A stretch of 64,000 nucleotides of DNA. Source: Selaginella moellendorffii. Lineage: Eukaryota; Plantae; Lycopodiophyta. Of the stretch, positions 6,248 to 61,518 are shown piece after piece. The position numbers and the translations under genes are program-made. The notes below the pieces were generated by a model. It had not been told where the DNA came from. It did no database searches and saw nothing but the letters and a program-made list of their open reading frames with translations. Each line of letters begins with the position of its first letter. Position 1 is the stretch's first letter. The DNA lies in assembly GCF_000143415.4 (NCBI RefSeq), contig NW_003314268.1, forward strand, positions 1,348,672 through 1,412,671, in the 5' to 3' direction.

Positions 6248-6385
6248 CGTCGCCCAAACCCTGGAAAAACCCTAAGGCGCTAGACCTAAAAGGAATATTT
6301 CTTTTGCCCCCTTTCTCCCTTTCAAAGTTTAGGGCTCTTGTTCCTTTTTACCCCTTTTCAAACTTTTAGGGTTCTTGGGTATTCT
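6248..6385. promoter_or_regulatory. Short bidirectional promoter with telo-boxes
   Basis: 138 bp between divergent ATGs. AAACCCTAA at 6267-6275 and TTTAGGG(C/T)T near 6330 and 6365. Confidence 0.55.
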
Positions 6386-11929: not shown

Positions 11930-13100
11930 GATCACATGGATAGTAGAAAATTTTACAAGGAAATTTGTGATATAGCACGAGATAGCAAATTTGAAAAGAA
12001 GATAGGGTTTTGGAATTTTCTTGTGGATATATCCAAGAACTTGTTTTGCCCAGCTGGTGGATAGCCATGAAATACAAGCTAAGAGCAAATTTTTGAGGTT
12101 ATTCAAATCCATGAAGAAGCACAAATTGATGATTTTATATCCTTAAAATTTTGTTAGGCCAAGTACTTCTATAACCAGACGAGCTATAAGAACAACACTT
12201 CACTACAATATTAGAGTGTAGGTATTTTTCTATAGATTTCAAGTTTTCTATATATAAACTAAGTATTGAGTTATAGGTTGATATATTCCAGCAAGTTCAA
12301 GCATCTACAATACTTATATAAATCAAAATGCTGAGAGAATTCTTATACTAGGGCTAAAGATGAGACATACATCAAAACAACATTACATTTGGATGTAAAG
12401 GTAGATATACTTGTTGGATTTTGTGGTCTAAATGCAAATCACATGTGAGATGACATGTTTTTTGTTAAAGTAGGGGCAGGAGAGGAAGGCTACAATAACA
12501 TTATAGCAATTTTTGACAATTTCTAACAAACTCATTATAGTCATGTGCTTAAAGTGAACTTACTATACTATTACAATCTACCAAAGTTATTTCTTGTTAT
12601 CCAACTTACTTACAATAGATATTTAGATATTTCATTTGTAGTTATAGTAACTTTAATCTTAGAAGTCTTATAACTTGGATATTCAACAGCAATGGGAGTG
12701 AGTTCATGACACTTGGGATAATAGTTTGCAATAAGTTTTTAGCCTGAAAATTACCCATGCATTTGATGGTAATTCAAGATATCAAAAACTAATGCGAAAA
12801 AATTATATACATTTTAAAATATACTAGGCCAGTTGGGTGTTTACAATATTACAAAAAGAGGATGGTTTTATTTATAGACTGCATGATCAAAAATTCATCT
12901 TTAATGGCAAAAAATTTGTAAATCCACTAGATTCTTTAAGAAATTTTATCCTTGGGAAGTTCTTAGCAACATTGAATCATATTAGAAAAGTATTTATTGC
13001 TCTTCCAAGACATGAACATAGCTTAAATTAAAGTGATATGGATAGGAAGGACCATCAAAATTGAGCTACTACATAAAGACTAGATTTTAGGAATGCATAT
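11930..13100 (+). pseudogene. Degenerate P-element/THAP9-like DDE transposase relic
   Basis: Collinear motifs FEVIQIH..F..L/NFVRPSTSITRR, AKDETYIK.TLHLD.KVDILVGFCG, HAFDGNSRYQKLM, LHDQKFIFNGKKFVNPLDS, HSLN*SDMDRKDHQN*A. Many stops and frameshifts. Confidence 0.6.
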
Positions 13101-15418
13101 ATATATTACAAGGTGATTGAATTACAACTAAGTGAACTTAGTGAAGAAGAATTAATAAAATCTTTGTCAACTCTTTTATCAAAAGATTTATTCTTGATTA
13201 CATCATTGCTCTGAAATTCCCTCTAAAGCACACCTAATAGAGTACGATGTATAAGTTATAGAAAAGATCATCTAAAGCTTTGCATTAGAAAAGTGAAATT
13301 TAAAGTTTTTTTTCCTCCCTTAGCAATGATCATGCCCATATTTTCATTTTTGTCCTTGAACACAAGTAGCAACAATCATCAAAATTCTATAATGTCTCAT
13401 GAAAAGTAAATATATATAGTTACAAATAGAAGAGATATGTTTTATAGTATTGTGCTACTTGAAAAGTATCATCAAAGTGGTTAGTGCAATTACATGTATA
13501 AATCTCATAAGATCTTGATAAAGTCTCAAATAACCCTTAATAAGACAATGCAATTACGCAATCTTAAATGCATGCTTGAAGATATTCAAGAAAAAACTTT
13601 AATCAACATGAGTGGTTATATTTAAAACATTATACCATTGTAACTGCATATTTGAAAATATGTGGGAAACTTATGTAAACACTAAACATTGGCATAAGAT
13701 AAGTGGCAATCATTATAAAGTGATTAAATGAATGATACACATCATCTATAGAATTCCTAAGGAAAAAATTTAGTTTATGCAAGGATTAGCAATAAGAGCA
13801 AGAGAAGTTACATCATGCACTATGAATGCCACCATCATCTAAGTGCATAATATCATATTTATTAGATACCTAGTTTAAATTAAATATAAATTAAGATAAG
13901 TAATTGATAATTGATTAAAAAATAAAAAATTGCTACACATTGCATGTAGAAATGCTTGGTGTGCTTAATAGTAGTGTTATTCTTACTTATTAATTCAATT
14001 GATTAAATAAAGTTTATAATTATAATTTATAAACACAAAATTAATCTTATTGCATATCAACCATTAGATGATAGAATAAAAAATAATATACTAGAAAGGT
14101 TTTAAGAAAGTTTTTAAATTATAAACATGTTTATAAATTATAAATACAAGATTAATCTAAATTAATAACAACCATTAGATGGTAGAATATCCTAGGATAT
14201 CCAAGTATTTTTATGTATATCTGCTACCATCCTAGCCCCTCTACAAGTTTGTTTAAGCAAACCAAAAAATTCAAAGAGAGAATATTGAAGATTATATTTT
14301 CTATTTTATTAGTTTCATTAAGCATCAAAACATTATTTATAAAAAATAATAAGACCATACAGGCCTTTTTTATTTGCAAATTTTCTAGTAAATTTATTCT
14401 CCCTTTATATTTTGTGTCAGAACTCATAATAATTTTAGTGTTGTGATAACTGCAAATGATGTGTTCAAATCAGACACTCAAAATAAATTTTTTTGTACAA
14501 ACACATAAGTAGCCTAATGCAATTTTTCAGAATACTTGAACAAAAGTCTTTGGAAAGTTTAAGAAATATTTTAAATATCCTCAACTCAATATTTGTGGAT
14601 TTTTTGGTGTTAGCAAATGAACTTTACCAGATATTGGAGAAAAATCCATAATGAAGATAGGCATAGATCTAGAAATGCAATTTAATTTACACCATAATGA
14701 TAAATGAAAGGTATACTGCCATTTCTAAGTACATCTATAGTAGAAAAAAGCACTCCTAAATTATTTCACAAATATAAAGAATGAGCTAGATAATTTCAAG
14801 AACTTTATCTCTGTATGGTGACCTTAAGTAAATAATAAATCGAGGTTAATTTTTGTATCCAATAAATCAAGTGGCTATAATAAAATTAACTAAAGACCAC
14901 GATATAAAAATGAAAAAAATAGAAAAAAAGATATTGTTTCCATTTTTATTTTGGTACCAGGGATTACAATCGACTTCTTCAAGAAGTTCCTCCTTTGAAT
15001 TTGCGACTTGCAGACTTGCAAATAGAAATTGCCTAAAGCTGAGATGTTGGAGCCTATAGAACAAACTCCCATTGAAAGGGTTCATACTCAATTTCCTCAC
15101 CAGCTTGAAAGTGAGCTCAAATGCACTTGCTATCACCACTTTTGACATTGTCCCAGCCAAGCCTATACCCCATTTTGTTACGTTTCACCTTATTTGACTA
15201 AATCACAATTTGACTCAGGAAAATGCCCGCGCAATCTCGGCCGCCAATCAAGAACAACGAAAAACACAAACCAGTCTCCTTTGATGGTCTGACAAAAGAG
15301 TCCTATCAAAACTCTCCACATCGCTCTCATATATAAGCTTCTCATGGAAACATAACGCTTTTATTCAAAGCATTGCTCAGTCGATCCACAATCATAGAGA
15401 AAACTTCATTGAAGGACG

Positions 15419-16012
15419 ATGGAAAAGCTCATATTGTTCTCGCTGCTCTTGTCCATTGTCTCACGCTGCTTCGCTCAACTCGGCCAGACGAATGGTAGTG
15501 ATTTTTCTGCAATCTTAAGCTTCATTGGTCCTCCATCACCAGAAACTTCATTCTCAGTCACTTGGTTGAAGTCTCCAAGAAACTCCTCCACTGCTGTTCT
15601 CGCCAGCACTTCCGCTTCTTTTGGCTGCCAGATCCAGATTCAAGCCACCAACACGCCGGTGCTGATCGGCCAGCCAACGCCAATCTTCTGGGGCTCGCCT
15701 TGCGCATTCTCACCCCCCTCTCTCGGGGGCCTAAACTGTTCCTCTCGATTCCAAGTCAACGGGAGCTTGGAGCTCGTCGTGATGGAGGAGGTGGTGTGGA
15801 GCACAAGCACAGATGGGAGAAATGCGAGCTTTGCGAGGCTCAGCGATGGTGGAGAGCTCTCACTTGTGACGTCCTCTAACCAGGTTGTATGGACGAGTAA
15901 CGATGGGCCACTGGCGGGGCTTTGTTTGATCAGACAAAGCAGTGCCGGATCATCCCTTGCAGTTCCTTGGGGCTTCTTGATTCTGCTCGGGTCACTCCTT
16001 CTAGCGCTATGA
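15419..16012 (+). CDS. Secreted, probably GPI-anchored protein with partial bulb-type (B/G) lectin domain, copy 1
   Basis: Signal peptide MEKLILFSLLLSIVSRCFA. VVWSTST..ARLSDGGELSLVTSSNQVVWTS lectin-like strands. SSAGSS plus hydrophobic C-terminus. TATA (atatataag) ~90 bp upstream. Confidence 0.75.
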   Translation: MEKLILFSLLLSIVSRCFAQLGQTNGSDFSAILSFIGPPSPETSFSVTWLKSPRNSSTAVLASTSASFGCQIQIQATNTPVLIGQPTPIFWGSPCAFSPPSLGGLNCSSRFQVNGSLELVVMEEVVWSTSTDGRNASFARLSDGGELSLVTSSNQVVWTSNDGPLAGLCLIRQSSAGSSLAVPWGFLILLGSLLLAL

Positions 16013-16307
16013 AAGAGTGTGTAGATCTTCTATCACAATAAAATTCTTCCACCATTCCTTAAAAGATATCTCAGTGATCCACTAAGTCGATTCTTTGTCA
16101 GCTCTATAGATATATGTGAAGAACTAACTACAAGCACAAAGTGGGCGGTAGAGATTTGCCCGGGTGGAAAAATCATATCGGCTCACAATGTGCCAAGTTG
16201 ATGCTTATCGGCTGTCCATGTGTCTTCCTTCTATCGTTAGACCCTAATCACTTGGCACTTGCCATGGAAGCTCTTTAGCTAGGTTTCTCGGATCGATCCA
16301 TCCCTCC

Positions 16308-19400: not shown

Positions 19401-22040
19401 TTACATAAACTTAATATAAAAGATAAAGAAAGATGATTCAGTTGCCTGGATGAAAGAAAAGCAAGGCTTAACTAAAAAAAAAAGTTCAATCAATTAGTTC
19501 AAAGCATGATGTGAGCTTTCTATGGTGCACTGAACTCCAATCTAGAGCAAATCCTTCCACCCCAAACAACTTGGAGGGGTGCCTGGTTTGTAACCTGAGA
19601 AAAAGCACAGCTGCTTTCACCAAAGTCCCAAACCCGGTGAAAGTACGAGATCCCTCATTTCTTCGTCATCACAAAGAAATCAACTTAAGAAATCCATTCC
19701 TTTCAGCTCCTCAAATTTTTCTTTCGCCTATGTGCCTAGCTCGATCCTGTGCTGCTGCTGCTAGAGCTCTTGATCCTCTCAAAAATCTAGAACAGACTGC
19801 AAGGAAACCTTTGTTGCTAGAGATCTCTTGGCGACCAGAGGGGGATTGAGATCCATTGCCGCTGATCACGATTTCCATGCCTTGGATCAGCTCCATTGTG
19901 ACTGTCACTCTGTGGTGGCACTGGAGATGCTTGAGCTATGGCGATGACCAATCTAACACCACTACCATTGTAGCTAAGGCGGCAACAAACTTTGATGCCT
20001 TGCGATGCCATGAAAATTCCAATCACCCAAATGGGCTAGATCCAATCTGTATTTGGCACGACACACTTTTTTAGCTCTTGCTTCACATAAGCCTAAATCT
20101 CACGATTAAATTTTGGGCTTAAGGGCACCATCAAAAATTACAACAACTTGCAGCAAAAGGTCAGTCTTTCTTCTCAATCCATGACACATCCTTTTCCGGC
20201 AAACAATTGAAAAACCCTAGATGGGCACACAGAACTAAACACACAGCAGGTTCATGTTTGTTTATATCCTTGCCTCCACCACATATTAAACACTGTTTCA
20301 TATTTCTCTTACTAATTTGAGTTTGTTTACAAACATGAACCTATATAAGCTATAGTTTTCTAGCTTTGTACTTGAAAATTTTAAATTATGCCTCCCCTTT
20401 GTCATCTTCTTAGAACTATAAGAAATACCAATCATTTTGATAAGAATTTTGATACTAACAATTTTGATAAACACCTTGAGCCACTTCAAATTATTTCAGA
20501 TCAAAATGAAATATATATACATCAAGCAATATCCACTACATCATCTCTACCTTCACAAACCACACTAGCAAGTCATACTATTCACAAAGATTCACAAATT
20601 TCAACTTTTGAAATTGGTTTTTTATTTGTTTTTTGTAATGCATCACATTTTAAAGATGAGAACATTGTTATGTGTTGTCAACATGGTCAAGTGATATTGC
20701 CACTTATATTACCTTTGCCAAATACTTTACTTACACTTTACAAGCAAAACAAAAACTCTAATTTCAAAATTAATATTAGACACTATAATAGTGCCCTTTG
20801 CATTTGCATCAATGGGTGTTAACATTGACACTTTTAGGGGTAATAGTCCTTATTGCTTTAGAATTCATGGGTAGATTTACCATAGTGTCATGTCATCACA
20901 TTCTTTTGGTGATTAAAGTCCATATTACGGGCAACTTTATATGCTAGATACACAAGAAGCCACAGATATAAGTCATCAAAACCCATTTAATACAAATTGC
21001 GAGCAAGATTTACTATTACATTTTGATACACTCTTTTGTCATATTAATCCATATGCACAGACTTATAGAATGATATATGAAATGGAACAAAAAGAACTTC
21101 ATGAAGTAGAAATTACAAGCTGTCCTTTATGTGGTGTTTATATATTACTAAGGAATGAAGGAACCAATAATTGACATTATAATATATCATAAACAAATGA
21201 TGTTGTTTTTGTTTTTGTTAGTGAGAATGGAGAACCCCCACATGGACGTAAAATTTGTATATATTCTATGGTCATTCTAAAAAGATTTTAATACTTGATG
21301 TTAATTGTGATCCTATGGTTTATCCTTTGATATTTTTCCTTTTAGTGATAAAGGATGGCATGCAAATATTTTGAATACATGACAACATCAAACTACATTA
21401 CTTTTATATTATGCATATCGCTCATCTAAAAGAGACACACTATAATCAAGTTTGGACCAAATCTTACATGCTAGCAAGCTTACTCAACTATACATTGTTG
21501 ATGCATATGTCAAAGTTGAGAGTAATAACCTATATTACTATTGTACCCACGAAATGTAATTATGAGTAGAAATGGATATTGGTCTTATGAATTATGTTGC
21601 AAATCATGTTTCAAATGAAAATATGAACCTTGGTAAAATTGTTATACTACCTTTAACTTTTGGTGGTGGACCTAGAGCAATGCAACAAAATTATTCAGAT
21701 GCAATGGCAATTATTGCTCATTACTCAAAATTAGATATTTTCATTACTTTCACTTACAACCCTAAATAGCCAGAAATTATAAAAAACTTATATCCAAATG
21801 AAGGTCCTAAAGACTGTCCTGATTTGGTCTCTAGAGTTTTCTATATTAAACTTAAAGAATTTTTGAAAGACATAACAAAAAGACATGTATTTGGAAAATA
21901 TGTAGCATATATATATGTAATTGAGTTCTATAAAAAAGGTCTCCCACATTGTCATTTTCTAGAAATTCTAGCCCATGAAAATAAAATTAGAGACCATGAT
22001 GCAATTAATCAATATATCATGGTTGAATTACCAGATCCTT

Positions 22041-23680
22041 TGTGAGACACAAAATCCCTAGGCCCCAAAGTGGAGCCGGAAAGGGTGCCACGTGGTAGTG
22101 GCCGAAGCGAAAGCCCAAACGAGTGTAACACGTTTGGACTAAAAGCTCTGACTTGGAAGGTCGAGAGTGGGAGTGGAACTCCCAACAAAGTGCTCAAGGA
22201 GCGAGCACGAAGCGAGCAATAAGCAAGGCTCCAAAAAGGGATCCAAAAAGGACCAACACATGACACGTGGAAGTGTTCGAGATGGAGTCCGATATGGAGT
22301 CCAAGATGGACCCGAAGTGGAGTCCGAGATGAAGTCCGATATGGAGTCCGAGATGGACCTGAAGTGGAGTCCGAGGTGGACCGAGACGGAGTCTGAGATG
22401 GACCCGAGATGGAGTCCGAGGTGGACCAAGATGGAGCCCGAGATGGAGTCCGAGATGGACCGAGACGGAGTCCGAGATGGAGTCCGAGAAGGACCCGAGA
22501 TGGAGTTCGAGGTCGAGACCGAGACCGGGACCGAGACCGAGACCGAGACCGAGACCGGGACCGAGACCGAGACCGGGACCGGGACCGGGACCGAGACCAA
22601 GACCGAGGCCAAGACCGAGCCCGAGCCCGAGCCCGAGTCTGAGTCCGAGTCCGAGTCCGAGTCCGAGTCCGAGTTCGAGTCTGAGGGGGTGAAAGCCCAA
22701 AGCGTTCGTCTCCCAGACCCTGGGGGGTTTGGTGAGCTCCAAAAGTATAGTAAGGGGGAGGACTGCAGTGGAGCCAGTTTGGCCAGGAAAGGCCAGTTTG
22801 GCCCAGGAAGGCCAGACCCAGTGTTGGGTGATGAGCTGACCACTGGGAAGTCCAAGACTAGAGTGAACATGGACCGACAAGTGGGGTAGCTTGGTGAAGT
22901 GTTCAAGAGCCAACTCTAGTTCCCCTGGGAGATCGACTGGCCGATACTCCTAGTCCAAGTGTGGGTGGCACTACCTACTTGGATACCAGGCGTGGCTCAA
23001 CGGAACCCCACTCTAAGCCCATGGCTAGAGCACCCAAGGGCGGAAGGCAGGGAAAGTACCTAGGTGGCTCGCGTAAGGCCATGGTGTTCCGAAATGTCAT
23101 CCCAAAGGCCCAGACTGTGGAAAGGAAGAAGAGCAGTCATCTGGGGTGTGACCAAGGACACAGTCGTGTGGTGATAAAGTCCTAGAGGACTGTGGGACTT
23201 AGTGGTCGGGCCTGTAGGCTTCGATCCAGTGGCAGTGTTGGCAAACACGGCCAAAGGCAAAAAGGGACTTAGTGGGGACTGACAGAGGGATATTGGGGAA
23301 GGCTGTTCCCTTTGTCAGTGGGCATCCTAAGGATGCTAAGGAGTGGATCTGGGGTGACCACTCATGGATGGTTGGCCCAGTCTTGGAGAGACAAGACTGT
23401 GTTGCAAGTGGTATTGGACTACCAGTGCAGCAAAGGTGATTGGGCATAGCCTTAGCGTAACAGGCTGCTATGTCGGTGGTACCTTTGAGTGTCAGTCATG
23501 GGATTGGACACATAGAGCACTTAGACCAGGTGCAAGGGTTGAGTGGCATGGATGCCATTCTTGGGGCTAGCAAGTCCCAAGTCCTGAATTGGACTTATGG
23601 AGGTTGTGAATGAGACTCCTCCAAATGGTCGGAGGTGTGGTTAAGTGATTAAAGTAGAATGGAAAAATTAGTTGCTTACA
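22041..23680 (+). repeat. 5' LTR (1640 bp)
   Basis: tgtgagacac...gttgcttaca. About 25 substitutions per kb versus the 3' LTR in the non-repeat part (counted by eye). Confidence 0.95.
22277..22685 (+). repeat. CpG-rich minisatellite in LTR: CCGAGATGGAGT 12-mers grading into GAGACC, GAGCCC and GAGTCC hexamers
   Basis: Directly visible. Second copy at ~28006-28440 with different unit counts. Confidence 0.95.
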
Positions 23681-23683
23681 ACT

Positions 23684-23695
23684 TGGTATCGGAGC
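23684..23695 (+). other. Primer binding site (tRNA-iMet)
   Basis: TGGTATCGGAGC 3 nt after the LTR end, one mismatch to canonical TGGTATCAGAGC. Confidence 0.9.
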
Positions 23696-26600
23696 TGTTC
23701 CTTAGTCCGACTTTTATTGGTGCTCAAGTATATCACCATTGATATTGGCATCGGAAGGTCCTAGGAGTGGGCTTATCCTTGAGGAGTAGCATGTCGAGAG
23801 GACATGGCTCTCCACTCAAGTTCATGCGTGAACTTCGGCTTAATGTGGTGGATAGAAAAGTGGTCAATAATAGAACGACTTTGGGATCTTGGGAATAGTA
23901 TATGGTTTTCCTTAGAGAGTTGAGGATGTGATCCAGATGAGCATTTAACTTAGCAAACTGGCTAATGTAGTTGTGGTAAACAACTATAGCTGGGATCACG
24001 GTAAAGATAAAGACTCTAAAACAATAAAGGAGTCACAAGATTATCCTCATATAGTTGAGGTTGGTGCTCATGAATGTGAGACCAGAAGTAATGACTGTGG
24101 GAGGTCAAATACGGAAGAGGGCTCAAGTCCTTGAAATGGTAGCCGGGGCTACTTTTAATAAATGTTGGAACAACCCAAGGAGTTGGGGGGTGTACTTAGA
24201 GATGAGTTGGTATTCTCATCACATGGACAAGTAGTCTTAAGGGGCAAAGGTTGCCCCAGAGAACAAAATCAAGTGTCAGAGCAACACTTGTGAAAATAGT
24301 CCTTGTGAGTGAAGACATGAATGCAAGAAGTGTATTCCAATGAGTTAGTGCCCGACAAGTAGGACCTTACGGGTCTGCGGATTAACCAAGTCCAAAACTG
24401 CTGGATGACTCAAGTAGAGTCAAGGAATGGTCCTAAAGGACTGATGGAAGCATTTGGACTGAAGTGTGTGGTACCCCACGAAGGATGGGGGGGATCATAG
24501 GATCCAAGGATAAGAACAGAGGGTATCTCATCGATGGCAAAATATGCCATGCTAAAGTCGTGGGAAGGGTGTTCCCAAAAAGAAAACAATTTTGAAACAA
24601 AGTTGTGTGTGACCTCTATGGTGCAGTGCTAACGGATGGTTGGCATGAGAAAGAGTGGTATTGGTCTTGGCAAAGACTTAGACACAAAGAAGAAGTGTCA
24701 TAGAGGTAGGCTCGTGGAGCCGATGGTGTGGAGACACCAAATGTGCCAAGGTGTGATACCTTGAGGCTATGTTGGTGGGCTCATGAGAACCCCTTGCCAA
24801 AGGAATCCCAATGGAAATGGGAATGGCATAGCCTAAACTGCAGAGCATGCAGTTGGAGTGTGGTGACCTAGATAATGATGAAGGTGTGGAAGCACCAGCA
24901 ATGAGTTGTAGGACTTGACAACTATGAGGCAACTAAGCAAGAGGTGCAAAATAATTGGTTAAACGGGTAGAAGGTAGCTACCCAAGCCTTCTTAATGGCA
25001 TAAGGAAATTGGATATACCCTTACAGGGGATAAGTTGCTTATGTTGCGATATAGTAAGTCAATGTCATGAAAAGAAATACTCATTGTCAAGGAAGTTGTC
25101 ATTGGGACACCTGAACACTCTAGAACACCAGGAGGTGGTGTTTGATGTCGCGAGGGCAATAGATAAGGCCCAAGGGACTAAGTCCTTAGCGAATGATGGA
25201 TAGAAGGTGCTATCCAAATGTCCAAGGTGGCGGAGACAGGAGAAGACTGTCTACTCAAATTGGACAAAGCCAAAAATGAAATTTTGGCAAGGCTAGCGAT
25301 GGGCATGTAAAGGCCCATAAGCAACAACATAATCTCGGTGTGTGGGATTATAGGGTGAGCATACCTAGATTGAGGAACCACTCCCTAGGCTACCAGGTAG
25401 GTTCATCCCCAAGAATACTTGCTAATGCATGATAGAAAGTGCAAAGCTATCCTCTTGATCTGGAGGAGAATGACCGAAGGAAAGGTGTGAAGCCAAAAGC
25501 AAGAAGTATGGGGGTAGAACCAAACCATAGGAATCGAAGGGCATAACCAAGGTTGGTTATGCCAGTTGGGAGTGGAGAATCAAGTGGGGGCTCGAGGGTG
25601 TTGCCGTTAGCAACCGTGATGCCATGGAGAGTCTAAAATATAGAATTATCCATGTTAGACTATATGGTAATTGGAAAGCTTGCAAAAAGGGAGGCCTTAG
25701 CCAGCTAAGGGACAGAGTTCCTTCAAAGTTCCCAAAGATGATTCTAGGTAGCTTAGTACCTAGAAAGGCCAAGCATAAATGGTTCAAAGAACGCACGAAA
25801 TCAGAGTGGCACAGCAGAAGTGTGGTCTTGAAGCTTGCCATGAGGCAAGGCTATCAAGGTTAGGGAAGTAGTTCCCGAGTGTTCAAAGAGAGGGTTTTGA
25901 ACAAAAGTCGATGATCAAGGGCTTTTACGCTTGTGCAGGAACCATGTTACAGTGGTCGGAGGACTTGCCAAAGCAAGATTGGCAAGTCAGGGGAACAAAT
26001 ACCCTAGTTGAAGGTGATAACTTCAAAAAGGGTGGGCCATGGGGCCAAGCATGGAGGAGTCCATGCATGATCACAGACTTGTCAAGTAAGAGGACTTGGC
26101 AGTGTGGAGGAACTAGGTTCCTAAGCTGTGATCTATAGCGTGCTTTGAGTATAAGTTGGTGCACTGGCGTGGGGAGTCACGCCAGGCATCCTTGGTGATG
26201 CCGTCTGTAGATGCATATACGGAGGTTGGGTTCGAGTCCCGACCCTCTAGTGCTTGGGTTCGAGTCCCAACTCACTAGGGCGTGGTGATGGTTTGGAATA
26301 TGAGGACACTCATATTTCGGTGGTCATGGACTCTCAGTGAGGAGACTGGTTTGGGCACACCGCCAAGCGAGGGATGCTTCGGAGTCGTGATGCACGGTTA
26401 GATTGCTTAGAGTGAAAGCTCGGCATATCTAACTTGAATACTTTGGTGCAAAGGGCACCAAAGATGTGTTGGATGAGATGGGGACACCCAAGTCTCAGTT
26501 GCTATGGACCCTTGGCCGGAAGGGCTGGCTTGGGCGCACCGCCAAGTGTGGGGGATGCCCCCGGGGTTGTAGTTAACAAGTTAAAGGTCTGGAAGACCTA

Positions 26601-27781
26601 ATACCTATTGGCAAACCTGTTAAGGTGCCGAGGTGAGATCACTAGGTGATCTTGTGGCTAAATAAGGACAAGGTCCTTGTTTGGGCTAAGGAATAAGGTT
26701 CTTAGTTCAAAGTGTTGATTTGAACTATTAATAAAGGTGTGGCTTGGTCAAGGTGACTAAGTGGGAAGGACACCTAAGGGAAATGAACTACTACAATACA
26801 ATGGTATTATGAGTTCAAGAAAATAGTCTCCAGAGACAGGCCCATGGGTGGGTCACAAGGTTGGGCTAGGAAGAGAGCCTAGAACAGTGGGGAGACTTAC
26901 TAGGGGTGAACACCCTAGTCTGGGCAAAGCAGATCCTTTGCTATGGAACCAAAAGAATACCTCAAGGAGGGAGGTAATGATCCTATGTTACTTGGTGCAA
27001 CAATCCAAGGATAGGAGCAAAAGACGAGTGCCCAAGATAGGGCCGTGGAATCCATTAGAAAGAATCCAAGTGGCAAAGTTAGCCAAGGAACACTAATGTG
27101 TTTGATGCTAACGGATTGCGAAAAAAGAAGTGAACTTCCAAGGATGGATTCCCAAGTGCTCCAATTTGGCAAAGGAAAGGTTCCAAGTGAGGGAGCAACT
27201 AAGTAGCCAAAAGATAGGGCCGTGGACAGCCCTAGCACAAATAATGATAAATGGAACGTAATGCCAATGGTGGCACAAAAATAGAAAAGAGGATGAAGGT
27301 GCCCTCGAGTAGAGAACTTCCTAGGAGGGGAAGTGGAGTTGCACAAAATGTGCAAGGCAAGGTGTCGGAGACACCTAGGAAATTGACTTCAAGAAGTCAA
27401 AAGTAAACGTTCCAAAGTGCAAAGGTAGATCAATGGAATCTGTGACTACTCAAGAATGAGTAGTGGAATTGAGTTAGAGAGGGTGTCTCTAACAGGTTTA
27501 GTGAGAACTGAACCAATAAAAAGGAGCAACCCACCCCAGGTGGTCAAGTGAGTCTCTAAGTTAGAGAGACTATCCTCCTTAGAGGATGGGCAAGGCATGG
27601 TGAGCCTTTGGTGTCAAACTATTGACGAATATGAAGAAGGCATGGTGAGCCTTCAATGTCAAACCATTGACAAATATTGGCTAGGTGCCAAGGATGGAAA
27701 TGGTAACACATGCGGGTGTTACTTTATAAAATGGTTTACCGTTCGATGAGGACATCGAACTTCATCTATGGGTGGTGGAGT
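23696..27781 (+). ncRNA. Putative highly structured non-coding internal RNA (tandem stem-loop array)
   Basis: Back-to-back inverted repeats, e.g. 24241-24257, 25540-25563, 25962-25988, 26441-26463, 27383-27400, 27445-27464, 27741-27760. Transcription is not shown. Confidence 0.6.
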
Positions 27782-29434
27782 TGTGAGACACAAAATCCCT
27801 AGGCCCCAAAGTGGAGCCGGAAAAGGTGCCACGTGGTAGTGGCCGAAGCGAAAGCCCAAACGAGTGTAACACGTTTGGACTAAAAGCTCTGACTTGGAAG
27901 GTCGAGAGTGGGAGTGGAACTCCCAACAAAGTGCTCAAGGAGCGAGCAATAAGCAAGGCTCCAAAAAGGGATCCAAAAAGGACCAACACATGACACGTGG
28001 AAGTGTCCGAGATGGAGTCCGATATGGAGTCCGAGATGGACCCGAAGTGGAGTCCGAGATGGAGTCCGATATGGAGTCCGAGATGGACCCGAAGTGGAGT
28101 CCGAGGTGGACCGAGACGGAGTCCGAGATGGACCTGAGATGGAGTCCAAGATGGACCGAGATGGAGCCCGAGATGGAGTCCGAGATGGAGTCCGAGATGT
28201 ACCGAGACGGAGTCTGAGATGGAGTCCGAGATGGAGTCCGAGAAGGACCCGAGATGGAGTCCGAGGTCGAGACCGAGACCGGGACCGAGACCGAGACCGA
28301 GACCGAGATCGGGACCGAGACCGAGACCAGGACCGGGACCGAGACCGAGACCGAGGCCAAGGCTGAGACCGAGCCCGAGCCCAAGTCCGAGTCTGAGTCC
28401 AAGTCCGAGTCCGAGTCCGAGTCCGAGTTCGAGTCTGAGAGGGTGAAAGCCCAAAGTGTTCGTCTCCCAGACCCTGGGGGGTTTGGTGAGCTCCAAAAGT
28501 ATAGTAAGGGGGAGGACTGCAATGGAGCCAGTTTGGCCAGGAAAGGCCAGTTTGGCCCAGGAAGGCCAGACCCAGTGTTGGGTGATGAGCTGACCACTGG
28601 GAAGTCCAAGACTAGAGTGAACATGGACCGACAAGTGGGGTAGCTTGGTGAAGTGTTCAAGAGCGGACTCTAGTTCCCCTGGGAGATCGACTGGCCGATG
28701 CTCCTAGTCCAAGTGTGGGTGGCACTACCTACTTGGATACCAGGCGTGGCTCAACAGAACCCCACTCTAAGCCCATGGCTAGAGCACCCAAGGGCGGAAG
28801 GCGGGGAAAGTACCTAGGTGGCTCGCGTAAGGCCATGGTGTTCCGAAATGTCATCCCAAAGGCCCAGACTGTGGAAAGGAAGAGGAGCAGTCATCTGGGG
28901 TGTGACCAAGGACACAGTCGTGTGGTGATGAAGTCCCAGAGGACTGTGGGACTTAGTGGTCGGGCCTGTGGGCCTCGATCCAGTGGCAGTGTTGGCAAAC
29001 ACAGCCAAAGGCAAAAAGGGACTTAGTGGGGACTGACAGAGGGATATTGGGGAAGGCTGTTCCCTTTGTCGGTGGGCATCCTAAGGATGCTAAGGAGTGG
29101 ATCTGGGGTGACCACTCATGGATGGTTGGCCCAGTCTTGGAGAGACAAGACTGTGTTGCAAGTGGTATTGGACTACCAGTGTAGCAAAGGTGATTGGGCA
29201 TAGCCTTAACGTAACATGTTGTTATGTCGGTGGTACCTTTGAGTGTCGGTCATGGGATTGGACACATGGAGCACTTAGACCAGGTGCAAGGGTTGAGTGG
29301 CATGGATGCCATTCTTGGGGTTAGCAAGTCCCAAGTCCTGAATTGGACTTATGGAGGTTGTGAATGAGACTCCTCCAAATGGTCGGAGGTGTGGTTAAGT
29401 GACTAAAGTAGAATGGAAAAATTAGTCGCTTACA
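27782..29434 (+). repeat. 3' LTR (1653 bp)
   Basis: tgtgagacac...gtcgcttaca, preceded by the purine-rich tract gggtggtggag. Confidence 0.95.
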
Positions 29435-32400
29435 TCCTTGTGACGAGTTTGAACTCTTTAAAATAATTACATCACATATGATGCATGGACTATGTGGACT
29501 TTTTTATCCTAATAGAAAATGGTTCTTGCTCAAAAGGTTTTCCAAAAAAATTTAATTATGAAACAACATTTTTAGTTAATGGATATCCAAATTATTATAG
29601 ACTAGAAAATGGATGTACAGTTTTTAAAAATTGTCAGACATCATATATAACTTTTAAACTTCCTGTTCCATTAAATGAAACTTTTATTTCTACTATTATA
29701 GCTAATAGTGAAGCATGCCAGAAAATAAAAAAATGCACATATGTTAATATGGGATGAAATTAGTATGGTTTACACACATGCATTTTTTGCCATTAATTTA
29801 GCATTACAAGATATAAAAAAAATGAATTACCTTTTGGAGGAATTATTCTTATTACAAGTGGCGACTTTAGACAAACACTACCAATTATTCCACATGGTCA
29901 TCGAGTATAAATTGTTTCAAATTCAGTAAAAATGAATAGGTTATAGAAATTTTTAAAACACTTTCCTAAAAAGGAATATGAGACTAATTGAATACTTTTT
30001 ATGGGCTGATTGGCTTCTTCAAATTGGAAATGGTAATAATTACATGAATTTACCCAATTTACTTTTAGAATCTATTACATTACCTTACACACAGGTAATA
30101 ATATCCTCTATTGTTGATTTTGTTTTCCCATCTTTACAAGATATTTCAAACCCCTACATTGCATCTAATAGAGTCATACTTACCCCACTTAATGATGATG
30201 CTTTTCCAAAAAGATGAACATCCCTTGGACTTAGCAAAGCAAGAGCTTTTCATCCTTGAGGTATGTTTTCGATTCCATAGCTGATATACATATTTATAAA
30301 AATGTTGACTTTTTTGATATTGAACACCTAGAAGATTTTCCAATTGAATTCCTAAATTTCATTACTCCTTCTGGTCTTCCACCACATAAAATCTCGCTTA
30401 AAGAAGGTATTATCTTTATTTTATTGAGGAATATATGTCCATCAACTAGACTATATAATGGTACACACCTCATACTTAAACATGCCTTACCAACAATTCT
30501 AGACTATGAAATTATATTAAGCCAATTCAAAGGTACATGAGCTTTCATCCCTCAAATCACACTCACACCTTTAGACATAGAAATTTTAATTAAAATGTCT
30601 AGAAGACAATTTCTAGTGCGTTTATGGTATTGCCTTATAATCTCTAAATGTCAAGGCCAAACATTTGACCGAGTCACAATACACTTGTCATATCTAGTTT
30701 TCACCCATGACCAACTTTATATGGCTTTATCAAGATGCACATCACCAGCAGAATTAAGCATTAAAGTACAGAACACATCACTCTAAGGATAGTTATTCCC
30801 TTTGAGTCCTTTTACTTTCACTATCAACACAGTATATAAGAACGTTTTATCCTCCATGTATTGTTTATAGCACTAAAACAAATTCTTAATATAAATTAAT
30901 GAACAAATAAAACAGCCTACTAATAGGACAGCATATGCTAGGCAAGTGCTAGTAATTATAAAACTAAGAAGATTGTAAATATAAAATATTTCTAGCCAAC
31001 ATTATTCCAAGATATAAAAGAATGGTGTAGGTCATGTCATATTTATCAAGTCTTTCAGAAGAATCCTTCAAACAAGAAGTCTTTATTCAATTTTGTCAAC
31101 ATGATCATTTGAGCAATAGGGTATAAATATTGTAGGACCAATTGTAGTGACATCAAGTTATAAAAATCTATCCTGGTGGCAATAAACTACCTTACTAAGT
31201 GGGCTAAAGCAATAAAAATTAAAACCAACATCAAGGAAGTTGTGATAAACTTTCTTGTTTAAAATATATGCATAAGGTTTGGTTGCCCATTAGAAATTGT
31301 TATTAACTAGGGTTCATATATATCTACTATCCAAAAGCTAATGGGTTGGTGGAGCTAATGTGTATTGTGCAACATTTTAGGAAAGTTGACTGCTGAGAAA
31401 AATAAAGTTTGGGATAAATAGAAAATAACAACATTATAGGTTTACACAACCACACATAAGGTAGTAATAAATTTCACTTCTTTTCAACAAGTTTATAAAA
31501 TAGTAGCTATACTTCCAATTGAGTTGGAAATCTTAAGTCTATAATTAGTGTTTAAGCATGGAATAAGTGATAAGAAGGACTTGTAATTGAGGCTCATTCA
31601 ACTTGAGAATCAATGTTAGCTCTTCAATATACAAAAACAGTTCAATAAAATAGAAAGCATAGATGTGATAAGAAATTTATAAAAGCTTTATAAATGGAAA
31701 TCTAATGAATTATATTTGCTTGTAGATTTTAATGAAGAACAACAGAACACCTTAGTGCATGGATATAAATGTTCTAACTTCAACTATAAAACAACATTAT
31801 CATTAGGATGTAAATAACCTACATGACTTATAGCCATGTGGCTTGTTTGGGTGGGATTATACAACCAAAAATGGCATGTTTAAAGTCAAGATGTCTGGAT
31901 ACAAGGTATGTATATACAAAACCATCCTCCTTATACCTCTACCATCAATTTTTCCTTATAATTTTAAAGTTGAAGTCAAAGTATAACTACTCTTTCCTTT
32001 CTATATCTTATATTTGTTCTATTACTTATCCACTTTACTTTATCACAAACCTTATATTCCACCATCTTTATAAAATAAAACTCTTATATTCAAGTATACC
32101 CTCCAACTTTGTAAAAGTTTCTACCACCATTCAAAAAATATTTCCTTGTGTAATATATGTATTCACTAATAGTCATCTAAATTTGCCACCTTTTCTACAC
32201 CAATATTTTATGATACTAACAACAAAACATAAAATATATTCTAAGGACTATATAATGAAGAGCATTGAGTATGAAGTGATTTTAGTTTTGTAATATTCTT
32301 TTTTGATCCTTACTTCCTTAAAAAATGTAAAAATTACAATTTAGTAGAAATCCCTCTCCTCTCTCTTTCTCTCAAAGCACAAAGTATATAAAAATAGTGT

Positions 32401-34733
32401 GCCACTAACCACTAAATTCAAACATAATGATTTCATAATTGTGTAAAGAGAAGCTGAAAAATTAATGAAATATTTGTCAACTCTTTTATTAAAAGATTTA
32501 TTCTTGATTACATCATTGCTCTGAAATTCCCTCTAAAGCACACCTAATGGAGTATGATGCATAAGTTATAGAAAAGATCATCTAAAGTCTTGCATTAGAG
32601 AAGTGAAATTTATCCTTCCTTGGCAATGATCATGGCCATATCTTCATTTTTGTCCTTGAACACAAGTAGCAACAATCATCAAAATTCTATCATGTCTCAT
32701 GAAAAGTAAACATATATAGTTACAAATAGGAGAGATATGTTTCATAGCATTGTGCTACTTGAAAAGTATCATCAAAGTGGTTAGTGCAATTGCATGTATA
32801 AATCACATAAGATCTTGATAAAGTCTTAAATAACCCTTAATGAAGACAATGCAATTGCACAATCTCAAATGCATGCTTGAAGATATTCAAGAAAAAAGCT
32901 TTAATTACCATACCATTGTAATGCCATCTTTTGAAAATATGTAAACATTAAACATTGGCATAAGATAAGTGGCAATCATTATAAAGTGATTAAATGAATG
33001 ATACACATCATCTATAGAATTCCAAAGGAAAAAATATAGTTTATGCAAGGATTAGCAATAAGAGCAAGAGAAGTTACATCATACACTATGAATGCCACCA
33101 TCATCTAAGTGCATAATATCATATTTATTAGATACCAATTTTAAATAAAATATAAATTAAGATAAGTAATTGATAATTGATTAAAAAATAAAAAATTGCT
33201 ACACATTGCATGTAGAAATATTTGATGTGCTTAATAGTAGTGTTATTCTTACTTATTAATCCAATTGATCAAATAAAGTTTATAATTATAAGCACGTTTG
33301 TAATTTATAAACACAAGATTAATCTTATTGCATATCAACCATTAGATGATAAAATAAAAAAGAATATACTAGAAAGGTTTTAAGAAATTTTATAAATTAT
33401 AAAAATATTTATAAATTATAAATATAAGATTAATCTAAATGCATAACAACCATTAGATGGTAGAATATCCTAGGATATCCAAGTATATTTTATATATATC
33501 CACTACCATCCTAGCCCCCCTACAAGTTTGTTTAAGCAAACAAAAAATTCAAAGAGAGAATATTGAAGATTATATCATTTTTCAACCATCATTCAGTTTC
33601 TATTTCATTAGTTTCAATAAGCATCAAAACATTATTTATAAAAGATAATAAGACCATACAGCCCTTTTTTATTTGCAATTTTTCCTGAATTTCAAGTAAA
33701 TTTATTCTCCCTTTGTATTTTGTGTCAGAACTTATAATAATTTTAGTGTTGTGATAACTGCAAATGATGTGTTTAAATCAGACATTCAAAATAATTCTTT
33801 TGTACAAACACATAAGTAGCCTAATGCAATTTTTCAGAATATTTGAACAAAAGCCTTTGGAAAGTTTAAGAAATATTTTAAATATCCTCGACTCAATATT
33901 TGTGGATTTTTTGGTGTTAGCAAATGAACTTTACCAGATATTGGAGAAAAATCCATAATGAAGATAGGCTTAGATCTAGAAATGCAATTTAATTTACACC
34001 ATAATGATAAATGAAAGGTATACTGCCATTTCTAAGTACATCTATAGTAGAAGAAAGCACTCCTAAATTATTTCACAAATATAAAGAATGAGCTAGATAA
34101 TTTCAAGAACTTTATCTCTGTATGGTGACCTTAAGTAAATAATAAATCGAGGTTAATTTCAAGTATATGTTGTATCCAATAAATCAAGTGGCTATAATAA
34201 AAATAACTAAAGACCACGATATAAAAATGAAAAAATAGAAAAAAATATATTGTTTCCATTTTTATTTTGGTACCAGGGATTACAATCAACTTCTTCAAGA
34301 AGTTCCTCCTTTGAATTTGCGACTTGCAGACTTGCAAATAGAAATTGCCTAAAGCTGAGATGTTGGAGCCTATAGAACAAACTCCCATTGAAAGGTTCAT
34401 ACTCAATTTCCTCACCAGCTTGAAAGTGAGCTCAAATGCACTTGCTATCACCACTTTTGACATTGTCCCAGCCAAGCCTATACCCCATTTTGTTACGTTT
34501 CACCTTATTTGACTAAATCACAATTTGACTCAGGAAAATGCCCGCGCAATCTCGGCCGCCAATCAAGAACAACGAAAAACACAAACCAGTCTCCTTTGAT
34601 GGTCTGACAAAAGAGTCCTATCAAAACTCTCCACATCGCTCTCATATATAAGCTTCTCATGGAAACATAACGCTTTTATTCAAAGCATTGCTCAGTCGAT
34701 CCACAATCATAGAGAAAACTTCATTGAAGGACG

Positions 34734-35318
34734 ATGGAAAAGCTCATATTGTTCTCGCTGTTCTTGTCCATTGTCTCACGCTGCTTCGCTCAACTCGGCC
34801 AGACGAATGGTAGTGATTTTTCTGTAAACTTAAGCTTCACTGGTCCTCCATCACCAGGAACTTCATTGTCAGTCACTTGGTTGAACTCTCCAAGAAACTC
34901 CTCCACTGCTGTTCTCGCCAGCACTTCCGCTTCTTTTTGCCAGATCCAGATTCAAGCCACCAACACGCCGGTGCTGATCGGCCAGCCAACGCCAATCTTC
35001 TGGAGCTCGCCTTGCGCCCCGGGCCTAAACTGTTCCTCTCGATTCCAAGTCAACGGGAGCTTGGAGCTCGTCGTGATGGAGGAGGTGGTGTGGAGCACAA
35101 GCACAGATGGGAGAAATGCGAGCTTTGCGAGGCTCAGCGATGGTGGAGAGCTCTCACTTGTGACGTCCTCTAACCAGGTTGTATGGACGAGTAAGGATGG
35201 GCCACTGGCGGGGCTTTGTTTGATCAGACAAAGCAGTGCCGGATCATCCCTTGCAGTTCCTTGCGGCTTATTGATTCTGCTCGGGTCACTCCTTCTAGCG
35301 CTATGGAAGAGTGTGTAG
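34734..35318 (+). CDS. B-lectin-like secreted/GPI-type protein, copy 2
   Basis: Paralog of 15419-16012 with only in-frame indels and TGG in place of TGA (adds WKSV). Confidence 0.75.
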   Translation: MEKLILFSLFLSIVSRCFAQLGQTNGSDFSVNLSFTGPPSPGTSLSVTWLNSPRNSSTAVLASTSASFCQIQIQATNTPVLIGQPTPIFWSSPCAPGLNCSSRFQVNGSLELVVMEEVVWSTSTDGRNASFARLSDGGELSLVTSSNQVVWTSKDGPLAGLCLIRQSSAGSSLAVPCGLLILLGSLLLALWKSV

Positions 35319-35601
35319 ATCTTCTATCACAATAAAATTCTTCCACCATTCCTTAAAAGATATCTCAGTGATCCACTAAGTCGATTCTTTGTCAGCTCTA
35401 TAGATATATGTGAAGAACTAACTACAAGCACAAAGTGGGCGGTAGAGATTTGCCCGGGTGGAAAAATCATATCGGCTCACAATGTGCCAAGTTGATGCTT
35501 ATCGGCTGTCCATGTGTCTTCCTTCTATCGTTAGACCCTAATCACTTGGCACTTGCCATGGAAGGTCTTTAGCTAGGTTTCTCGGATCGATCCATTCCTC
35601 C

Positions 35602-41678: not shown

Positions 41679-44327
41679 CTAGATGCTCGAATTGGACGTG
41701 CCCACCGCGGCGCCGCGCACCCACCGCCAAAAGTACTCCCCGCCGCGCAGCCCAATGACGCTGGGCGGGCGGTCGCTCCTCGCGCTCGCCATCACCGTAC
41801 GGTAGACGTACAGCATATCCACCGTATATTCGTCCTCCGTGCTCTCCTTGACGAGCTCCACGTTGAGCCATGGCAGCTTCTTGGACAGCTCGTCGCAGCC
41901 GGCGATGCTCACCCGGCAGCCCGAGAGCCAGAGGAAGCGCATCGTCTCGTAGCGCTCCAGCCCCGCCAGGAGCGCGCGATCGCCAAACGGGCAGTCGCGG
42001 ATCTCCAGCTTGCGGATCTTGGTGCATCCCCGGAACACCGCCTCCAGTCCCACATCGCTGTCCGCCGCGAACGCCACCGAGAGCGTCTCCACGTTCTTGC
42101 CGAATTCGCCGATGTACTGGAAGGCGCGATCGGTGAGCAGGCCCGAGACCGCGAGGCGCTTGAGCTCCTTGCAGTTCTTGACGATGGCGCCGAATCCCTC
42201 GTCCAGCGGCTCGCCTGTGACGTGATCCGGCTGCCGGGTGGTGATGATGCACAGGCGGAAGCGGCGCATCTTGGAGCAGGCGCGCGACATGGCAGTGATG
42301 GCCGAGTTCGTCATCCGGCGGCAGAAGTAGAGGATCGAGGAGAGGTTGGCGCAGCCCTCGGAGATGGCGAGCAGGCCTTGCTCGGTCACCACGCCAACGC
42401 CCTCGTGATCCGCCGGGAACACCCGCAGCTCGCGAAGATCCTTGCAGGTGTTGGCCACGATGCGCAGCCCCGCGTCCTCGACATTGTCCTGGAGCTGCGA
42501 CCAGGGGAGAAAAGCAAAAGTGAGATGGATGGATCACGGATCGATCGATCGAGAGAATGCATGGGCTTTTTGACTAGATCGATCGAGAGCGAGCGAGAGG
42601 CTGCTTGCCTCCATTCATGAGCGAATGAATCGCAAGCAATCATGATGCAAGAGAAGGGATGCCAATGGCCACACCAGCAAAAACCGAAAAAGCAAAAAGG
42701 AGCAAAAGTCAGAGAGGCTCGCATGTTCATTGTTCAGAATCAAACCATCACGCAGAAGGGGAAAAAAAAAAAAAAAAACGAGAAAAGAAAAGAGAGAACA
42801 CCAGAGAAGGGGACAGCCACAAATCGACCTGGAGACGACCCAAGAGGCAAAACTCAGCGCAACCCAGCTCGTGATTCCCGCGGCCGGGTATAACCCATCA
42901 AGGAAATCGCGAATGCACGCCCGTAACAAGGAGCCCACGATTGAGATCACACCCAACCAAAAAGAAACGCAAAAAAAAAAACAAACAAAAACACCGCACA
43001 AAAGCAGGGGATCACATACCATCAATGCACGCACACGAACACTACTACTACTACTAAAAGCTCGCCTCGATCGATCAATCACCATGGAGCAACAAGACGC
43101 CATAGAACCATGAGAAATCCAAGAGCGAGAGCGAGAGCGAGAGAGACTTACCCACAACCTCTGGAGCTTGTGGCAGTGGCTGAGCAGCTGGAGGAGATCC
43201 GCGTTGCGGAGGTTGGCGTAGCTGAGGTTGAGCGAGAGGAGGTTGAGGCAAACCGGGTAGAGCGCGATGAGACACGGCGGCTCCGCCTCCCAGATCCCGG
43301 ACAAGCTCTGCAGCTTGGTGCAACTCGAGAGGCACGCACCCAGGTCCTGAATCCGCTCCCACTGAATCATCTCCTGCTGCTCCGGAGCCGGCTGCGGCGG
43401 CTGCACCTGCACCTGCACCTGCATCTGCGCCTGAAGCTGCTGCGGAAGCGGAAGCGGAAGCCCGCCTACGCCAACTGCTCCGCCGCCGTTAAGGTTCCCG
43501 ATGCCGCTCATCGAGCCCGTGCCCAGATCCGTGAGCTGCGGCCCGCAGCGGTGGAGCAGCTTCTGCAATTGCCACAGCGCCACCTTTTTGTTGAGGCCCA
43601 GGCTCCGGAGCTGCGGGTTGCGGGCGACCAGCGCGTCCAGGGCGTCGAAGTCCACCGCCGCGTCCAGGCAGGAGAAGTGGAGCGCGAGGAGCGAGGTTGT
43701 GCTGTCCGGGAAGGCGCTGATCCAGTCCACGCTGCTGTGATCCTCCACCAGGCTCTCCTGGAGGTTGAGCTCCTGCAAGTTCCTGGAGAGATCATCACGG
43801 CGATGGCGATGAGCATTCAATCAATCCGTCCAGAGGAGAGGAGATGCTTACCGGCAGTTCCTGGCGATGGAGGCGAGGCCCTTGGTGCTGAAGCCGTCGC
43901 AATTGTTGAGCACGATGACGCGGAAGCCTGGGAAGGAGGTGGCGAGGAGATCGAGCGCCTCGTCGCTCACGCACATCCGCTTGAGGCGGAGCTCCTCAAG
44001 CGGGAGTGACGCGTGCGCGAAGGTGACGATCCATGGCAGGAGGTAGGCTCCCCAATGCGGGGGCAAGAGATTGAAATCCGCGAAGCGCGGCTTGCCCTTG
44101 AGCGTGAGGGAGCGCACCTTGGGGAAGCGTCGCGCGACGAGCTCCGGCGAGACCGAGTAGCAGTTGCCGATGAAGAGGTTGGCGCGGCTGGCGGCCTCGG
44201 CCTTGTACCACGACTTGCAGACGAGCGACACCGAGTTGCGATCGCGGTGGGAGGAGAGGAAGACGAGGACGTGCTCGAGGATGTCGTCCGGGAACTCGTA
44301 CACCATGTCTCGGGCGAAGCCTCTCAT
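41679..44327 (-). CDS. TIR1: TIR1/AFB auxin receptor F-box LRR protein; exons 44327-43852, 43782-43152, 42494-41679
   Basis: [75 protein letters not shown]. Conserved two-intron structure. Confidence 0.96.
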
Positions 44328-61195: not shown

Positions 61196-61518
61196 CCTCT
61201 CCTCCGCCAAGAAATCGAATCGATCGAAAGCAAAACGAACGAGTAAGTGGTGCGTGTACCCGTTATAAAAGGGGCCAAAAACGCGGAATGGCTATTCCTA
61301 GGCTTGACGGACGGTCGAGATTCGCGGAGGCCACTAATCGACGGCTTCCCGGAAGCTGGCCTTAAGACTGGGGTTTATGGGGTTTAGGGCTGACGATGCC
61401 CCTGTTTTTTAGGGTTCTTGAGGATGAGGAAGCTCTGGCGATGGCGACGCGCCGGCTTGCGCCAGGTTCGTGCTCGATTTGTCGCGGATTTTGATTGATT
61501 CTCGTGGTTTCAGGGAGA

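Follow-up and report, generated by a model that had tools for sequence, protein, structure and literature searches.

The window analysed here, i.e., 64,000 nt of Selaginella moellendorffii contig NW_003314268.1 (positions 1,348,672 to 1,412,671, forward strand), harbours a long terminal repeat (LTR) element of 7394 bp at 22041–29434, the 4101-bp interior of which (23681–27781) is non-coding, consists of 60 % A+G on the sense strand and is rich in short stem-loops. All features of the element and its immediate flanks are given for the + strand. The two LTRs (5' LTR, 22041–23680, TG...CA; 3' LTR, 27782–29434) share 95.1 % identity over 1665 columns (47 mismatches, 35 gap positions), substitutions between them amounting to only ~3 %. 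A target site duplication of 5 bp (TSD) frames the element, the letters of 22036–22040 recurring at 29435–29439, and a polypurine tract (PPT) is located at 27770–27780. The primer binding site (PBS; 23684–23695), which we take to be of the tRNA-Met type, shows one mismatch to the form present in gypsy loci retrieved from metagenome contigs. Its assignment draws on PMC3350952 and PMC6317226. Intact LTRs, TSD, PBS and PPT had been predicted for this element, and all of them were located. A simple pattern search revealed no TATA box in the LTR. Both LTRs contain tracts of 6-/12-nt tandem repeats (near 22290–22680 and at 28010–28440), which leave frames open on both strands (at most 313 codons from stop to stop).

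The element resides within a Helitron. A Pfam scan of the immediate flanks identified a Rep region to the left (21470–22035; PF14214, E 3.5e-45) and a decayed PIF1 helicase region to the right (29440–30400; PF05970, E 9.4e-10), i.e., the Helitron is split by the LTR element between these two regions. The boundaries are confirmed by two contigs of run X1 containing a direct 22034–29434 join, which possibly originate from another Helitron copy.

Members of the same family are abundant. From run X1, 213,530 contigs were placed on the element, yielding a summed depth of 0.5–1.6 million across the interior versus 8–10 thousand in the flanks (more than 50-fold; this depth is not a copy number). The whole interior is covered by many contigs that are 80–99 % alike, and 16 runs of only 3–5 Mb contain ~30 % of the words of the interior. 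A 2580-nt contig (record 10 of run X20, which is possibly an RNA run) corresponds to 25980–27426 and 28402–29434, implying a shorter variant which lacks ~2.3 kb of the 5' interior and retains the 3' core with the LTR joined directly to ~25980; this arrangement was found in one contig only. The family may already carry a name in a repeat library of the Repbase type. Taken together, these features identify an LTR retrotransposon of the large retrotransposon derivative (LARD) type that is intact, non-coding and present in high copy.

The original prediction that the interior holds no gag/pol-like open reading frame (ORF) agrees with all searches conducted, which did not reveal a remnant of one either. 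The longest ATG-initiated ORF on the sense strand of the interior comprises at most 79 codons, and Pfam reported no family in the six frames (X placed at stops). ORFs of the 110 gypsy loci retrieved from metagenome contigs, which served as comparison set, reached at best 24.6 bits in tblastn against the interior. Frameshift-aware profile alignment (profiles: one of 26 gypsy-locus ORFs and one of 42 Gag-Pol proteins chosen from 120 listed; none copia-specific) yielded scores of 14–18, compared to a null of 15.6–16.6 ± 1.6. As a control, a real locus was randomly degraded; with 35 % substitutions and 3 % indels it remained recognisable (scores 46–76), fading at 40 % (20–32). The purine-rich sense strand and the 4.1-kb length recall a pol region, and a few fragments resembling reverse transcriptase (RT) peptides can be discerned by eye near 24950–25360. 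The latter scored at null level in the tblastn and profile tests, and the LTRs differ by only ~3 % substitutions. An origin of the interior from common gag-pol in decay, its hairpin density being that of the coding parent, is therefore very improbable and largely refuted; an ancient coding origin beyond ~40 % divergence or a copia parent would escape these tests.

The most conspicuous property of the interior is its content of short hairpins. All 15 hairpins quoted in the original prediction are exact, and short stems in the interior far exceed chance in number. Perfect stems of at least 6 bp with loops of 2–12 nt occur 58 times versus 8.3 ± 2.6 in dinucleotide and 9.8 ± 2.8 in trinucleotide shuffles. 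For the same class of stems, z lies between -0.8 and 2.5 in eight other blocks of the window, the two flanks among them, and the LTRs show a mild excess (z 2.8–4.5). With loops restricted to 3–10 nt, 55 stems contrast with 5.9–7.9 (maximum 16) in shuffles of dinucleotides, 4-mers and 5-mers as well as in 50/100-nt block shuffles, such that a density no different from shuffled sequence is at variance with the data. Resolved by loop size, observed versus shuffled counts are 6 versus 2.8 (0–2 nt), 55 versus 5.9 (3–10 nt), 14 versus 7.3 (11–20 nt) and 19 versus 14.9 (21–40 nt), i.e., the excess is confined to the geometry of RNA hairpins. It is evident in every 500-nt block of the interior, perfect hairpins being densest in the 3' 0.6 kb. 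The predicted number of about 100 stems holds in so far as 100 stems of at least 5 bp are indeed present, albeit shuffles yield about a third of them (108 versus 34–39, loops 2–12 nt). Describing the array as near-continuous overstates the perfect hairpins, which occupy 39 % of the interior with gaps of up to 125 nt, and becomes appropriate once G-U pairs and multi-branch helices are counted. Predicted pairing of the interior amounts to 57 % versus 46–49 % in four shuffles.

The stems are short and the loops diverse. The longest predicted helix spans 13 bp, and a long inverted repeat is not present. Purines make up 73 % of the unpaired residues, and of all C residues 80 % are engaged in pairs. 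Among 89 short hairpins 81 different loops were counted, GGAG being the most common (n = 4). The minimum folding energy difference (MFED) of the interior, positive in all 20 windows scored, reaches 23 % for the sense strand, compared to 7.5 % and -0.6 % for the Helitron flanks and 1–3 % for two genes. As predicted, the stems do not constitute a satellite; a satellite array is ruled out, since the existing duplications are merely short and local. The interior is nevertheless not wholly unique, considering tandem duplications of ~176, 180, 45 and 28 nt.

Selection on the fold was assessed from family variants in the stretch 27305–27600 (296 of 4101 nt; 40 of 46 variant rows), nine pre-listed perfect hairpins of which account for 122 of the 296 positions. 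Only 4 of 33 X1 variants with a frequency of at least 10 % are located in pre-listed stems (13.2 expected, p 0.0006). At sites with 10–50 % frequency, for which the major allele is that of the window and ascertainment has least effect, 1 of 15 falls into a stem (6.1 expected, p 0.004). Three of the four in-stem variants lead to G-U pairs on the sense strand. Three other stem variants, of the A-C type, occur at 2–4 % in X1, one of them (27389, innermost pair) being common in X4, X8 and X20. When stems were instead defined by the partition function, the sense-strand deficit of in-stem variants was still present (p 0.0002–0.05), and 24 variant rows for 26088–26489 gave p 0.02–0.12 for the sense strand. 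Among single internal mismatches of otherwise perfect stems, G-T is found 6 times (1.0 expected) and A-C once (0.9 expected). Many family contigs deviate at several sites of 27427–27443 from the copy in the window, and small hairpins seem, by eye, to form in a different register in each of the two versions.

Two old internal duplications provide a second view on the fold. Copies A (26290–26400; a hairpin and a predicted multi-branch domain) and B (26468–26583) of the ~176-nt duplication, which are ~65 % alike, show five compensatory pair changes: with the fold predicted from either copy alone, 5 double changes retain pairing (1.7–1.9 expected) and 3 pairs are broken (7.3–8.0 expected; p 0.03–0.04). 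Four of the five are double transitions and one is a double transversion. In a joint fold of both copies a helix of ~14 bp with four matched changes encloses three hairpins, indicating that part of the interior is multi-branched rather than a plain chain of hairpins. Both copies of the second duplication (27004–27368, ~180 nt each) fold as well. The modules thus seem to have grown partly by tandem duplication, their stems subsequently being either preserved through matched changes or established afresh in other registers.

At 26226–26270 two tandem hairpins, derived from a 28-nt tandem duplication, each carry in their loop an exact match to the tRNA T-loop/Pol III B-box motif (26229–26239 and 26257–26267); these may represent a remnant of a Pol III promoter or a structural T-loop. 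Neither ARAGORN nor Rfam detected a tRNA in the element, and 26185–26246 was dismissed as a tRNA candidate, since family variants at 26191–26206 lose any likeness beyond the T-loop. Six weak Rfam matches were obtained for the element, none of which reached the gathering score.

The coding gypsy loci allow the fold of the window element to be placed in context. Their hairpin ratio has a median of 1.35 and a maximum of 3.9 (49 of the 110 loci were long enough), compared to 9.2 for the element. One group, the L024 clade, has a tRNA-Met PBS, is sister to L003/L070 (unsupported FastTree of 70 of the 110 loci) and is presumably Galadriel/Galahad-like, a placement drawing on PMC6317226. Hairpins in this clade amount to 1.7–3.3 times the count in synonymous shuffles (7 clade loci among 46 loci scored), six non-clade loci reaching 2.2–2.8. 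Its MFED ranges from 3 to 18 % (mean 11.7 %, 8 loci) versus a median of 2.3 % in 55 others (scored: 63 of 110). The RNA folds pervasively within pol in the coding Ty3/gypsy loci L055, L051, L001, L007, L018, L024, L032 and L074, L001 consisting of tandem gypsy units with common LTRs and a period of ~5.36 kb. In the comparisons made, no listed gypsy locus was linked to the window element. Pervasive folding is thus a minority trait of coding gypsy elements, and the window element is extreme in perfect short hairpins without being unique in folding energy; the view that the fold is a trait of the parasite only could not be upheld.

Since variants avoid stems, G-U pairs are favoured on the sense strand and one duplication displays compensatory changes, pairing in the sense-strand RNA is probably under selection, with stems being partly replaceable, as far as can be judged from a 296-nt stretch and a duplication. 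A lack of covariation, which would have spoken against the original prediction, is not what the stem-avoiding variants and the covarying duplication reveal, and its notion of a non-autonomous LTR element with an RNA selected for structure is supported by these variants together with the hairpin excess and the absence of a gag-pol alignment. Because loops share no motif and some coding gypsy elements fold pervasively, the fold resembles a bulk property akin to the RNA structure ordered at the scale of the genome (GORS) in RNA viruses, suggesting that selection acts on bulk folding and not on fixed motifs.

How such a fold might pay off can be outlined as follows. In line with established knowledge, the element would be transcribed from its 5' LTR, primed by tRNA-Met, and copied and integrated in trans by an autonomous helper of the Ty3/gypsy or copia type supplying Gag, RT and integrase. 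The sense RNA is predicted to adopt numerous local stem-loops that are short and have purine-rich loops, and this folded, untranslated RNA could form a compact cargo bound collectively by the helper Gag. An RNA that is never translated would have to compete for Gag, in which many purine-looped hairpins might help. A precedent is provided by the MS2 coat protein, for which many dispersed stem-loops are described to be recognised collectively (10.1101/2025.04.14.648219). The complete sequence of events, i.e., an RNA selected to fold with encapsidation by a helper Gag as pay-off, is the preferred explanation, albeit held with slightly more doubt than confidence.

Several observations weigh against selection for folding and packaging. 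The loops lack a consensus, and donor-helper assays described in PMC4974528 found Ty1/Ty3 interiors to be dispensable when proteins are supplied in trans; packaging signals of a sequence-specific kind are accordingly not supported. Terminal-repeat retrotransposons in miniature (TRIMs) spread with less than 1 kb (PMC10886601). Folding energy shows no strand polarity (antisense MFED 31 %), and the antisense strand gives values similar to the sense strand in the test with partition-function stems, in which variants that break pairs are not significantly depleted at major-allele sites (sense p 0.13–0.83). A looser (side-2) version of the mismatch test is flat. The variant test spans no more than the stretch and rows indicated above. 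The ~176-nt duplication yields p 0.05–0.15 with a MAFFT alignment and slightly wider bounds, and the copies at 27004–27368 share no excess of pairs (p 0.4–0.9). L055, a coding gypsy locus outside the L024 clade with an intact ORF, has 28 of 28 windows positive and an MFED of 31 % around RT. In raw RNA reads of runs X22 and X23 (~12 % read), mean depth of the interior is below 1; a peak at 22352–22919 (around the LTR repeat tract) consists of reads running on into unrelated sequence, and none of the main runs listed with the element is an RNA run. Finally, no helper element was identified: the LTR-end/PBS junction, used to find family copies, gave 0 matches in metagenomes, none of 412 candidates retrieved with an ORF of the LTR was a fused helper protein, a DNA profile built from the L024 clade did not match the element, and a search for an RT motif gave 0 matches in viral contigs.

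The same fold could alternatively act as a shield. Short local pairing would prevent a long, ribosome-free RNA from entering long or intermolecular duplexes and would conceal it from decay enzymes, RNA-dependent RNA polymerases and small-RNA guides, a role that has been proposed for GORS in persistent RNA viruses (PMC7642675). All evidence for selection at the RNA level applies equally to this possibility, which is further consistent with a longest helix of 13 bp, the absence of a long inverted repeat and of a loop motif, and stems in new registers in one duplication, as known from GORS (PMC7642675); moreover, coding loci fold pervasively too, so that no parasite-specific trick would be required. 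However, structured regions of transposable elements in maize attract more small RNAs (PMC10760457), although these involve longer, microRNA-like hairpins, and, judging by the two raw RNA runs, there seems to be little expression of the element. Shielding is therefore considered somewhat unlikely, if clearly worth keeping in mind.

Explanations without benefit from the folded RNA fit less well. Template switching during reverse transcription or repair may perfect quasi-palindromes and overwrite changes in stems, from which perfect short stems, few stem variants and double changes would result without selection; in addition, the four double transitions among the five compensatory changes are obtainable by methylation-driven decay. 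Such a mutational by-product does not predict tolerated G-U pairs on one strand or matched changes in a helix with arms 55–75 nt apart, and most gypsy loci, despite the same mode of replication, show little excess (median ratio 1.35 in 49 of 110; median MFED 2.3 % in 55 non-clade loci of 63 scored), rendering it improbable. The fold could also be a relic of a structured founder or captured RNA, or serve a role at the DNA level as palindromic binding sites or cruciforms. A young burst from one founder would preserve hairpins without selection, tests are biased by stems having been chosen from the window copy, and palindromes in Sirevirus LTRs are thought to be cis-regulatory (PMC10760457). On the other hand, the depletion remains when only major-allele sites of the window are considered (1 of 15), compensation between ~65 %-alike duplicates points to long maintenance, no Rfam match above the gathering score indicates a captured RNA, and loopless palindromes are hardly enriched. 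Relic and DNA-level role are thus regarded as quite improbable.

Returning to selection for a folded RNA, comparison with known systems supports the classification as LARD. The two TG...CA LTRs, PBS, PPT, TSD, missing coding capacity, a length of more than 4 kb (7394 bp) and the occurrence of the interior in many members are features of this class. LARDs have been described with conserved RNA structure (PMC7215508), for which the 296-nt stretch and the ~176-nt duplication lend support here, unlike the second duplication. Set against the description of LARDs such as Sukkula of barley, the window element is marked by short hairpins of unrelated sequence, dozens of them along the whole 4.1 kb, with an excess measured against shuffles. 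Retrozymes, i.e., hammerhead-bearing non-autonomous Ty3/gypsy parasites, are likewise non-coding with a tRNA-Met PBS and a G-rich interior of branched hairpins, structure being kept without sequence homology (PMC4918200, PMC5680766). In contrast to their RNAs of 600–1000 nt, the element measures ~7.4 kb and forms no long rod; neither an Rfam scan nor a core-motif scan found a hammerhead in it. A retrozyme is ruled out on this ground, the size of the element also arguing against it. TRIM, Cassandra and Helenus/Ajax are also non-autonomous LTR elements, and Helenus, one family of which is known from S. moellendorffii, carries tRNA-derived A/B boxes (PMC10886601). TRIM, Cassandra and Helenus are smaller than ~1.3 kb with a small-RNA motif in the LTR, whereas the window element comprises 7.4 kb with LTRs of 1.6 kb and B-box-like hairpins in the interior and none in the LTRs; size and internal B-boxes rule out membership in these groups.

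With GORS viruses the element shares pervasive short-range stem-loops, lower variability of paired sites and pairings that are partly non-homologous between relatives (PMC7642675). Its MFED of 23 % exceeds the 7–15 % typical of these viruses, window sizes differing between the two (PMC7642675). Unlike a persistent positive-strand RNA virus, it is a non-coding LTR element integrated in a plant nucleus. Candidate helpers, by description only, are the chromoviruses SM1- and SM2-Galahad (~7.4–7.5 kb, LTRs near 1 kb, TG...CA, tRNA-Met PBS, 5-bp TSD, hundreds of copies, encoding Gag-Pol; PMC3350952). SM-Fogey and SM-Diluvium together with SM-Cranky, which are smaller families (tRNA-Met), fit the ends of the element equally well (PMC3350952), and a tRNA-Met PBS is common to many clades.

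The literature searched, outside of which most subscription papers fall, provided no description of an LTR element in which short hairpins of unrelated sequence extend over several kb and no relevant description of GORS in retrotransposons. It is puzzling that large non-coding LTR elements keep kilobases of interior although mini-elements transpose without them. Here, the interior carries a measurable and apparently selected property, and the family is rich enough in copies for covariation to be mapped in full. That a minority of coding gypsy elements attains virus-like MFED hints at a trait of retrotransposon RNA that is general and can be screened for with ease. One may speculate, tentatively and with more reservation than conviction, that LTR retrotransposons possess a GORS of their own: several gypsy lineages fold even in pol, and the present family would be the extreme case, with the fold as its only content, kept stem by stem to win helper particles or to evade silencing. 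If so, nature would have run an experiment, with many copies, that shows which features of bulk RNA structure are read by Gag and by the RNA surveillance of plants.

The remainder of the window contains ordinary host genes at 4892–8074, 41679–43820, 53775–56330 and 61495–62574. Genes encoding pentatricopeptide repeat (PPR) proteins, a TIR1-like F-box protein and a CRINKLY4-like kinase are presumably present in the window, judging by the translations. The first of the host regions includes a DCAF13/SOF1 gene (4892–6271), the best listed relatives of which (73 %) are from moss and clubmoss. AT-rich flanks at ~12700–16200 and 31400–35500 appear to repeat each other over several kb, including a GC-rich gene-like fragment, and probably represent nested or duplicated pieces of Helitrons.

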